From Escherichia coli (lineage in GTDB: Bacteria; Pseudomonadota; Gammaproteobacteria; Enterobacterales; Enterobacteriaceae): DNA of 64,000 nt. The stretch lies in the NCBI RefSeq assembly GCF_050920415.1, contig NZ_CP169309.1, one strand, 5' to 3'. Positions 3,513-39,401 of the stretch are shown here, piece by piece (within the stretch, counting starts at the first letter, position 1; each line of letters begins with the position of its first letter). A model generated the notes under the pieces. The model was not told the origin of the DNA. It made no database searches and saw only the letters and a program-made list of their open reading frames with translations. Position numbers and translations under genes: made by a program.

Positions 3513-3661
3513 GAGTTCAGGTTCTCCTTATCGTTATATGTTCCTGAAGCAATTGAATGACCAAAGGACCGGAAACACGCTGACTGGCATCTTTACTGTG
3601 CCTTTTGACCTTCGTTTTTCCGGCTAAGATTATTCCAGCCTGATTCCAGTATAAGTGTTTC

Positions 3662-3699
3662 ATATTAATAAAGAGACAGGGCACTCATTGAGCGCCCTG
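3662..3699 (-). terminator. Intrinsic terminator downstream of metH
   Basis: Minus-strand hairpin cagggcgctcaatgagtgccctg followed by a U-rich run, about 30 nt after the metH stop. Confidence 0.6.
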
Positions 3700-3731
3700 T
3701 TTGTTGTAAGGAAAAGTGACAGATTTGTGAA

Positions 3732-7415
<3,684 letters not shown>

Positions 7416-7577
7416 ACTTGCTCCCGACACGCTCAACCCAGATTTAATAAAAATTCAACAAACCATACTGGCATAAACGCATCTGTGGTAAAAGCGAGCA
7501 CCACGCAACATGAGATTTGTTCAACATTAACTCATCGGATCAGTTCAGCAACTATTGCATTAGCTAACAATAAAAAT

Positions 7578-7591
7578 GAAAATGATTTCCA
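7578..7591 (+). promoter_or_regulatory. Putative IclR autoregulatory box upstream of iclR
   Basis: gaaaatgatttcca, whose reverse complement tggaaatcattttc resembles the IclR half-palindrome; about 25 bp before the iclR start codon. Confidence 0.4.
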
Positions 7592-7614
7592 CGATACAGA
7601 AAAAGGAGACTGTC

Positions 7615-8439
7615 ATGGTCGCACCCATTCCCGCGAAACGCGGCAGAAAACCCGCCGTTGCCACCGCACCAGCGACTGGGCAGGTTCAGTCTTTAACGCG
7701 TGGTCTGAAATTACTGGAGTGGATTGCCGAATCCAATGGCAGTGTGGCACTCACGGAACTGGCGCAACAAGCCGGGTTACCCAATTCCACAACCCACCGC
7801 CTGCTAACCACGATGCAACAGCAGGGTTTCGTGCGTCAAGTCGGCGAACTGGGACACTGGGCAATCGGCGCACATGCCTTTATGGTCGGCAGCAGCTTTC
7901 TCCAGAGCCGTAATTTGTTAGCCATTGTTCACCCTATCCTGCGCAATCTAATGGAAGAGTCTGGCGAAACGGTAAATATGGCGGTGCTTGATCAAAGCGA
8001 TCACGAAGCGATTATTATCGACCAGGTACAGTGTACGCACCTGATGCGTATGTCCGCCCCTATTGGCGGTAAATTACCGATGCACGCTTCCGGTGCGGGT
8101 AAAGCCTTTTTAGCCCAGTTAAGTGAAGAGCAGGTGACGAAGTTACTGCATCGCAAAGGGTTACATGCCTATACCCACGCAACACTGGTGTCTCCTGTAC
8201 ATTTAAAAGAAGATCTCGCCCAAACGCGAAAACGGGGTTATTCATTTGACGATGAGGAACATGCGCTGGGGCTGCGTTGCCTCGCAGCGTGTATTTTCGA
8301 CGAGCACCGCGAACCATTTGCGGCAATTTCGATTTCCGGACCGATTTCACGTATTACCGATGATCGCGTAACCGAGTTTGGTGCGATGGTGATTAAAGCT
8401 GCGAAGGAAGTGACGCTGGCCTACAGCGGGATGCGGTGA
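7615..8439 (+). CDS. iclR: Glyoxylate shunt repressor IclR
   Basis: Start placed at MVAPIPAKRGRKP (274 aa) after RBS aaaaggag; track ORF begins 13 codons upstream. Helix-turn-helix plus IclR effector domain. Confidence 0.93.
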   Translation: MVAPIPAKRGRKPAVATAPATGQVQSLTRGLKLLEWIAESNGSVALTELAQQAGLPNSTTHRLLTTMQQQGFVRQVGELGHWAIGAHAFMVGSSFLQSRNLLAIVHPILRNLMEESGETVNMAVLDQSDHEAIIIDQVQCTHLMRMSAPIGGKLPMHASGAGKAFLAQLSEEQVTKLLHRKGLHAYTHATLVSPVHLKEDLAQTRKRGYSFDDEEHALGLRCLAACIFDEHREPFAAISISGPISRITDDRVTEFGAMVIKAAKEVTLAYSGMR

Positions 8440-8455
8440 CATTTTCGCCTCTGAT

Positions 8456-10180
<1,725 letters not shown>

Positions 10181-10194
10181 TTATTGCCCTCATC

Positions 10195-10390
10195 AGGAGC
10201 AGTGAATTGCCGGATAAGACGCGCAAATCGTCGCATCAGGCGTTGATTGCCGGATGCGGCGTGAACGTCTTATCCAGCCTACGGTCAGCAACGGTTGTAG
10301 GCCTAATAAGACGCGCAAGCGTCGCATCAGGCATCGTGCACCGATTGCCGGATGCGGCGTGAACGCGTTATCCGGCCTACAATCAGCAAC
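10195..10390. repeat. Cluster of REP elements (BIME) in the aceA-aceK intergenic region
   Basis: Several alternating copies of gccggatgcggcgtgaacgc / ttatccggcctac and gcctgatgcgacg motifs. Confidence 0.8.
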
Positions 10391-10403
10391 GTGTATCAGT
10401 TGC

Positions 10404-15200: not shown

Positions 15201-15584
15201 TTATTTCTGCTTAAGCATTGCCATGACCGCACTATCACTGAGCACCACTGATTGCGCATGGATGTGGAAATGGCGATATTTCATTAACGTTGCACCAGCG
15301 ACCACTTCATGAAGAATGCGTTCCTCAACCTGTGACAAACCGCCCTCATTCATTTCCAGCGCGCTCACAACAATATCCATACGTTTTGCTGGCAAAAAAG
15401 AGTACCAGGGTGAACGTGGGTGGAGTTGCAAAACAAGATCTTGCAGAACTTTTTCTGCAACAAAGAAATTGGCGATTAACAGGCGCTGGTTACTGAAGGC
15501 AGCCTCTCCTGACACTTCACGTTTGCTTTCAAGATCGCGAACAGTAATTTGATTACGACGAATTTGGATATACAGAACTGACAT
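15201..15584 (-). CDS. yjaA: Stress-response protein YjaA
   Basis: Start placed at MSVLYIQIRRNQ (127 aa); the track ORF is extended 12 codons from a TTG that lies inside the rrnE terminator. Confidence 0.85.
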   Translation of the reverse strand: MSVLYIQIRRNQITVRDLESKREVSGEAAFSNQRLLIANFFVAEKVLQDLVLQLHPRSPWYSFLPAKRMDIVVSALEMNEGGLSQVEERILHEVVAGATLMKYRHFHIHAQSVVLSDSAVMAMLKQK

Positions 15585-38544: not shown

Positions 38545-38706
38545 AGAACACATGTTCTCATCTTCCAGGATGCAGCAGACTGAAGAAATTCAGACATCCC
38601 GCAACCTGCGATTATCGCAAGGTCAAGGCAAAGTCCGGTAATGGCGTTCTGAATACCAGAGATAATTCTCTGGCGAAACCCACCTTAAGGTGGGTTTTGT
38701 TATTTT
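38545..38706 (+). ncRNA. Candidate small RNA 3' region downstream of thiH (possibly SroH-like)
   Basis: Two consecutive plus-strand hairpins (ccagagataattctctgg; cccaccttaaggtggg) ending in uuuuguuauuuug. I recall an sRNA annotated between thiH and yjaZ in K-12; the 5' end given here is a guess. Confidence 0.3.
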
Positions 38707-39239
38707 GATGGCTGAGGAAGCTGCTTATTTCTCAATAAGTTGTAGGCAATGGTGAAAAATTTCACTGATTTACCTTTCTGTTTTTCAGAAATGGGATAAG
38801 CGCTAGTTACATGCAAACGAAGTTTTTTCTTTTCCCTGAAAGCCCTGAACGCAACAAAGTAAAATGCCTTGTCTCCTCCGTTTAAATCCACTTCAATCAC
38901 GGCATAGCTACCATACCCAGCATGAATAACGTTGCTTTCTGGCAGCGCCAAAATGGTTCTTTTTAAGTGTATGCGCGCTAAGTTATAACGGTGCTGGCAG
39001 AAGGGACGAGATTCTTTAGGCGCGTGGTACATTAACGATTGTTTTTCTTCGTTAGTCTGATGTTCATAATCTTTTGTGAAGCAGTGAAGAGAGTAGGTAA
39101 CCCAGAAGCGATACTCTAAAGGCTCTTTGCCCTCATGATGCTGAACGTAGACAGCCTGATGAGCATCAAGAAATGATAAATCACGAATATCACCATCCGG
39201 ATGTCCAAAAGGTCGCCACTTCTCCACTTCCTGTTTCAT
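38700..39239 (-). CDS. yjaZ: Heat-shock protein YjaZ (HtrC)
   Basis: 179-aa ORF; conserved position between rpoC and thiH. Confidence 0.85.
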   Translation of the reverse strand: MKQEVEKWRPFGHPDGDIRDLSFLDAHQAVYVQHHEGKEPLEYRFWVTYSLHCFTKDYEHQTNEEKQSLMYHAPKESRPFCQHRYNLARIHLKRTILALPESNVIHAGYGSYAVIEVDLNGGDKAFYFVAFRAFREKKKLRLHVTSAYPISEKQKGKSVKFFTIAYNLLRNKQLPQPSK

Positions 39240-39401
39240 TATCGTTCCTTAAGAAAGTCACACAGGAATAGTATCGAATTCTTGCCGAGCTTGACTCAAT
39301 TAGTTCAGTCAGTTTCAGGATATTAGTCATCTCTACATTGATTATGAGTATCCAGAAATTCATTAAATATTCTGACAAATGCTCTTTCCCTAAACTACCC
39401 C

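Follow-up and report, generated by a model that had tools for sequence, protein, structure and literature searches.

A compact aceK-iclR junction without arpA, very likely the ancestral allele, in an Escherichia strain of probable cryptic clade I

We analysed a 64,000-nucleotide stretch of the Escherichia coli contig NZ_CP169309.1 (assembly GCF_050920415.1), referred to below as the window, at the point where iclR and aceK converge. Direct reading places the iclR stop codon, TGA, on the plus strand, preceded by ...GGGATGCGG, and the aceK stop codon, TAA, on the minus strand, where it appears as TTA at 8456-8458. A spacer of 16 nt (CATTTTCGCCTCTGAT) separates the two convergent stops and there is no arpA. 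The listed open reading frames extend over 7576..8439 (+) and 8456..10180 (-, 574 aa), and both flanking reading frames, aceK and iclR, are intact. The RefSeq annotation of the matching record gives identical ends for the two genes, with nothing annotated between them. The translated AceK has 574 aa and terminates in ...SVRFV. An earlier note on this DNA had placed the stops at 8437-8439 and 8456-8458, 16 bp apart with no gene between them, and had also reported yjaA at 15201-15584. Both observations were borne out, the former by direct reading and annotation, the latter by annotation and by perfect matches of both typing primers. The features of the locus are collected in Table 1.

Table 1. 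Features of the aceK-iclR junction and of the typing loci in the window
Feature	Position	Strand	Description	Source
iclR CDS	7615..8439	+	274 aa, glyoxylate-bypass repressor, ends ...LAYSGMR*; protein WP_000226404.1, common to R32_14_1F	RefSeq annotation of matching record, translation
iclR stop codon	8437..8439	+	TGA	Direct reading
Terminator-like hairpin	8435..8449	+	Weak, 5-bp stem, over the iclR stop, then TCTGATTTAT	
Spacer	8440..8455	none	CATTTTCGCCTCTGAT, 16 bp, between convergent stops	Direct reading
Putative pre-insertion stretch	8447..8463		GCCTCTGATTTATACGA, ~17 bp, covers the two terminal aceK codons and the stop	Junction alignments
aceK CDS	8456..10180	-	574 aa, isocitrate dehydrogenase kinase/phosphatase, tail ...RFV as in E. 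albertii	
Clermont primer AceK.f site	8835..8854	-	1 mismatch	
yjaA	15201..15584	-	127 aa; Clermont amplicon 15315-15525, 211 bp, both primers 0 mismatches	

Over its first 45 kb, the window is 100% identical to E. coli MFDS1022581 (NZ_CP169399.1), which comes from animal-source food in Korea. Strain N96, from a Tibetan pig, is 99.6-99.8% identical to the window, and the other complete genomes reach at most 97.8% over the first 20 kb. The window and NZ_CP169399.1 are not byte-identical but differ by a few indels and in rpoC (20000 window bases span 20002 of the record, 25000 span 25001, and rpoC is 99.976% identical), which is explained either by another version of the assembly or by an isolate that is nearly identical. 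Typing at chuA, TspE4.C2 and aes was done on the matching genome MFDS1022581; the checks for chuA, TspE4.C2 and arpA covered the usual loci and were complemented by aggregate counts.

In K-12 MG1655, arpA (2187 bp, 728 aa) sits between aceK and iclR, in agreement with the ankyrin-repeat gene of roughly 2.2 kb described in the earlier note. The K-12 locus (b4016-b4018) comprises aceK at 4218596-4220332, arpA on the opposite strand at 4220301-4222487, and iclR at 4222804-4223628. The gene order yjaA-yjaB-metA-aceBAK ... iclR-metH is the same in K-12 and in the window. K-12, however, carries an additional 2467 bp with arpA, the 3' end of which overlaps that of aceK by 32 nt. Its AceK is four residues longer (578 aa, annotated as a 1737-nt CDS) and has a different tail, ...SVRYGEMLF as translated by eye across the junction, so that the dissimilarity of the AceK C-terminus to that of K-12, also remarked on earlier, holds as well. 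The 16-bp junction itself, for which an occurrence in K-12 had been named as a counter-case, was not seen there, since K-12 carries arpA at this place.

The break between the two forms was placed with alignments anchored on both sides of the junction. Compared with K-12 and with the arpA-containing strain 2013C-4282, homology of the window extends past the iclR stop as far as 8446, is then lost, and is picked up again at about 8464, in the last aceK codons. The distance between the anchors is 20 bp in the window, in R32_14_1F and in UPEC-455U, the arpA-less UPEC comparison strain that we presume to be B2. In genomes with arpA it is 2486-2487 bp, and the net difference from the window amounts to 2467 bp (2467 island columns in the alignment). 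The intervening stretch of about 17 bp, GCCTCTGATTTATACGA, is identical in the window, R32_14_1F and the arpA-less UPEC strain, and near-identical in E. albertii. It has no counterpart in genomes with arpA; therefore, the two states are not linked by a plain deletion of arpA. The binding site of the Clermont primer ArpA1.r in K-12, a perfect match, lies exactly on the island boundary.

The gene itself is annotated in RefSeq either as EspL4 or as a ShET2/EspL2-family type III effector, and is described as an ankyrin-repeat gene. The K-12 arpA (locus L002, 11334-13488) is covered to at least 80% in only 2004 of the 4109 complete E. coli genomes that carry arpA. The partial matches listed align over 72% in two pieces and are annotated as 'ShET2/EspL2 family' rather than 'EspL4'. 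On this comparison, a common arpA allele would have a divergent or deleted internal segment.

Several further differences were seen at and around the junction. Five substitutions fall within 17 nt (8425-8441), covering the 3' end of iclR and the first bases of the spacer, and change the IclR C-terminus from ...AYGGMR to ...AYSGMR. They are common to the window and R32_14_1F only, being absent from UPEC-455U, K-12 and 2013C-4282; E. albertii lacks four of the five and shares the state at 8436. This could be either a mutation cluster or a micro-recombination patch. Just upstream of aceK, the aceA-aceK spacer of the window (10181-10403, 223 bp) contains REP/BIME-like units (GCCGGATGCGGCGTGAACG..TTATCC.GCCTAC, twice). 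The corresponding spacer is 48 bp long in UPEC-455U, K-12 has 182 bp here, and R32_14_1F and 2013C-4282 both have 313 bp, a series of lengths that looks like REP copy-number variation. Between metH and yjbB (window 3546-3736), UPEC-455U has two extra hypothetical genes, and next to pepE it has sorE instead of the rluF/yjbD found within positions 1-1000 of the window; these are lineage-specific indels flanking the locus. Finally, yjaZ, between thiH and rpoC (window ~38700-39240), is present in the window and in K-12. In 2013C-4282 no yjaZ is annotated and the thiH-rpoC gap is 241 bp.

A scan of the spacer and junction for intrinsic terminators returned the weak 5-bp-stem hairpin of Table 1 as the sole candidate. 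Folding of 8400-8500, on either strand, was no more stable than that of shuffled sequence (z = 0.2-0.4). We thus rejected a functional element in the 16-bp spacer, whether a bidirectional terminator or a structured RNA, as the hairpin is weak and folding stays at the level of shuffled sequence. Nothing in the spacer qualifies as a convincing intrinsic terminator. The convergent aceK and iclR transcripts may be terminated by Rho or may end inside the opposing gene.

To assign the strain, we considered the Clermont quadruplex markers. The arpA amplicon (AceK.f/ArpA1.r; primer sequences from PMC4322292 Table 1) is negative: AceK.f matches with 1 mismatch, and ArpA1.r has no site with 3 or fewer mismatches, the homologous 20-mer at 8455-8474 differing from it at 8 positions. 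At its usual locus chuA is likewise negative, as the yhiD-dctR gap of MFDS1022581 is 42 bp and the chu site is empty. In the chuA-positive strain SCU-306, the genes chuS-chuA-chuT... occupy this yhiD-dctR site and both chuA primers match perfectly. Across the collection, 3166 genomes have an empty chu site and 2237 have exactly one chromosomal copy of chuA. The yjaA amplicon is positive (211 bp, 0 mismatches). For TspE4.C2, which is amplified from an alpha/beta-hydrolase gene situated between fabY and fdhE, neither the gene nor the primer sites were found at the fabY-yiiE locus of MFDS1022581. In this genome a transposase and a truncated hypothetical ORF replace the hydrolase between yiiE and fabY (NZ_CP169399.1 4999796-5001610; locus L098, 34796-36610). 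The profile at the usual loci is arpA-, chuA-, yjaA+, TspE4.C2- (- - + -), which the Clermont table lists as 'Clade I or II' (PMC7026060 Table 3).

The clade I-specific aes primers Cl.I_F and Cl.I_R, with a 315-bp amplicon in the ClermonTyping scheme (PMC6113867 Table S1), both match the aes of MFDS1022581 with 0 mismatches (locus L088, 23334-23353 and 23630-23649; 316-bp amplicon), and the clade II aes primers have 3 mismatches each. Of the control strains, E200086 and R32_14_1F give a positive result, and K-12 and ESC818 a negative one, neither of the latter having a Cl.I_F site within 6 mismatches. The MFDS1022581 aes is 97.8-98.2% identical to that of other Cl.I-positive strains and 92.9-93.4% identical to that of K-12 and ESC818. 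A search with the aes-hemH-adk region returned a cluster of about 15 genomes at 97.7-98.7%, including EC42405, with the next step at 96.2%. For 28 other genes (31.1 kb), 2013C-4282 shares 98.84% identity with the window and K-12 shares 97.02%; the two references are 96.97% identical to each other over the same genes. Both 2013C-4282 and EC42405 have been listed as complete genomes of cryptic clade I, in a study that defines 465 true C-I strains (PMC10100065). The clustering with clade I was observed on about 62 kb of a 5.2-Mb genome. The flanks of the junction agree, aceK being 97.7-98.9% identical to that of clade I strains.

The (- - + -) profile, the clade I aes and the identity over the 28 genes together indicate that the source very likely belongs to Escherichia cryptic clade I, a lineage that RefSeq files under E. 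coli. It agrees with the clade I strains of this profile in all four quadruplex results, in the positive Cl.I aes amplicon and in grouping with 2013C-4282 and EC42405. It is unlike the clade I strain E1492, which types as (+ + + -), the other profile compatible with clade I, in the ClermonTyping table (PMC6113867). The authors of that scheme treat clade I as a subspecies of E. coli (PMC6113867).

The earlier note had read the locus as belonging to a B2-like strain rather than K-12. The second half of this statement stands; the first does not, given the empty chu site and the perfect match of the clade I aes primers. The B2 reading had its reasons: B2 and F are arpA-negative in the published Clermont scheme, as the note had said (PMC7026060 Table 3; PMC6113867 Table S2), the Clermont table (PMC7026060) allows B2 for a strain that is arpA-negative and yjaA-positive, and the arpA-less UPEC strain and other human isolates can be aligned over the entire junction without interruption and share its architecture. 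The likeness to the arpA-negative B2/F junction of the 2013 Clermont quadruplex includes the 16-bp spacer, the 574-aa AceK, an identical GCCTCTGATTTATACGA and the lack of a usable ArpA1.r site. Of the B2 characters, the genome has arpA negativity and, via yjaA, a positive yjaA and/or TspE4.C2. However, B2 also needs chuA, and the chu site of MFDS1022581 is empty while chuA-positive genomes each have a single chromosomal copy. Moreover, the genome carries the clade I aes, the window flanks are 5-7% diverged from the arpA-less UPEC strain (aceK 94.8% and iclR 93.8% identical to UPEC-455U), the junction region is only 92-93% identical to arpA-less human isolates, and clade I strains are the closest relatives at each of three separate regions. 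We therefore consider phylogroup B2, or a B2-like source from which arpA is characteristically missing, a most improbable origin. The other counter-case named earlier, a non-B2 profile together with arpA elsewhere in the genome, was observed in its first part; no arpA elsewhere was found, in checks that covered the usual locus and aggregate counts. Even less credible is an artefact of assembly or reading by which arpA was collapsed or skipped. We found no evidence in its favour, and the same junction recurs in three independent complete clade I genomes, in 1308 complete E. coli genomes and in E. albertii, with intact reading frames.

Which of the two junction states came first was addressed by an outgroup scan with AceK as the query and one genome per species. 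It gave at least 80 enterobacterial loci, 77 of them with both aceK and iclR. The two genes are convergent neighbours in all 77 listed loci with both genes, and none of these 77 has an ArpA match at E<=1e-10. The Escherichia outgroup among the matches listed is E. albertii alone, E. fergusonii and clades II-V not being among them. Its junction resembles that of the window in the convergent genes, the near-identical spacer and the 574-aa AceK ending in SVRFV*. It differs in a spacer 1 nt shorter (15 bp, ATCAGTGGCGAAAAG, compared with ATCAGAGGCGAAAATG in the window, aceK sense) and in a nucleotide divergence of iclR and aceK of about 7-12%. The GC content of K-12 arpA is 37.6% and that of the arpA-iclR spacer 32.3%, as against 52.8% for aceK, 54.2% for iclR and 56.1% for metH. 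Among 5426 complete E. coli genomes, the contiguous aceK-iclR junction occurs in 1308 and arpA in 4109; the sum of 5417 is consistent with non-overlapping sets. With so many genomes in this gene-content state, chance is not at issue.

The compact junction with its RFV* tail in E. albertii, the lack of arpA in 77 of 77 outgroup loci and the low GC content of arpA argue that the compact junction is the original state and that arpA was acquired. Since a plain deletion of arpA cannot recreate the stretch of about 17 bp, the arpA-less state is further supported as the pre-insertion one. On these grounds, arpA is probably a horizontally acquired island of about 2.47 kb, and we infer that the allele of the window is ancestral by descent. 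Across the Enterobacteriaceae, iclR and the terminal gene of aceBAK, aceK, converge directly. In part of the E. coli lineages and in the majority of clade I strains, the low-GC island of about 2.47 kb would have entered at this point and overwritten about 17 bp, the two terminal aceK codons and the stop among them. AceK would in consequence have come to end in ...RYGEMLF (578 aa), with its 3' end overlapping that of arpA. With no such insertion in the window, AceK would have kept its 574-aa ...RFV end, with the stops 16 bp apart. The absence of arpA described earlier is better read as an island never inserted, or as the ancestral allele, than as a loss of the B2 type. Overall, we regard it as very likely that the window carries the ancestral, pre-arpA allele of the aceK-iclR junction and that the strain belongs to Escherichia cryptic clade I.

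Clade I is not uniform at this locus. Among the clade I-like top matches, MFDS1022581, N96 and R32_14_1F are without arpA, and at least 14 others, 2013C-4282 included, have it. The arpA of 2013C-4282 matches the group-E primer ArpAgpE.f exactly, in keeping with the typing scheme's 'E or clade I' ambiguity. Relative to 2013C-4282, the window is 97-100% identical over most of iclR and aceK, but identity declines towards the junction: the final ~80 nt of iclR show 92.7% and the final ~300 nt of aceK 94.8-95.3%. This local drop is suggestive of a short patch of recombination. In 2013C-4282 the island shares about 93-97% identity with its K-12 counterpart, much as the flanks do. There is therefore no support for clade I having recently received arpA from an allele of the K-12 type, and a recent import of the arpA-less allele from B2 was rejected, since right beside the junction the window shares 88-95% identity with the arpA-less UPEC strain that was sampled.

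The variation within clade I leaves room for a secondary loss, in which the ancestor of this sublineage had arpA and homologous recombination across aceK and iclR swapped the island for an arpA-less allele of another lineage. Presence of arpA is the majority state among the clade I complete genomes seen, so that its absence could be secondary; the short patch of lower identity to 2013C-4282 flanks the junction; and the similarity of the 2013C-4282 island to its own flanks, in comparison with K-12, makes the island look old in clade I rather than recently imported. The patch, however, stems neither from the presumed-B2 strain that was sampled nor from an allele of the K-12 type, being 88-95% identical to these, the window and R32_14_1F alone have the five substitutions at 8425-8441, and so few sites (8477 and 8479) separate haplotypes with and without arpA that no donor can be named. 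Hence we see such a replacement as possible, if rather unlikely, and even if regained by recombination, the sequence now present would still be an allele of the ancestral type. A further proposition, which seems to us unlikely and is offered as speculation, is that presence and absence of arpA form an old polymorphism across clade I and E. coli sensu stricto, with both alleles kept, or repeatedly exchanged in short patches by homologous recombination, since before the split.

The arpA marker and the (- - + -) profile of clade I are already known. A literature search for which arpA state is ancestral, or for EspL4 being ArpA, returned nothing useful. The practical outcome is the re-identification of the window as cryptic clade I; the understanding of the locus is unchanged. 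Cryptic clade I has recently been described as an emerging source of STEC and ETEC (PMC10100065). A single window that is arpA-negative and yjaA-positive is not enough to call B2, as cryptic clade I shows the same pattern, and only chuA or the aes allele tells the two apart. An arpA-less state that is ancestral, and polymorphic within clade I, would explain why clade I strains type either as 'E or clade I' or as 'clade I or II'. If the polymorphism does predate the split, its association with an altered AceK tail and with the aceK/arpA overlap would point to selection rather than to neutral drift of a marker. Such selection would act either on an orphan gene of the EspL family or on expression at the 3' ends of aceBAK and iclR.
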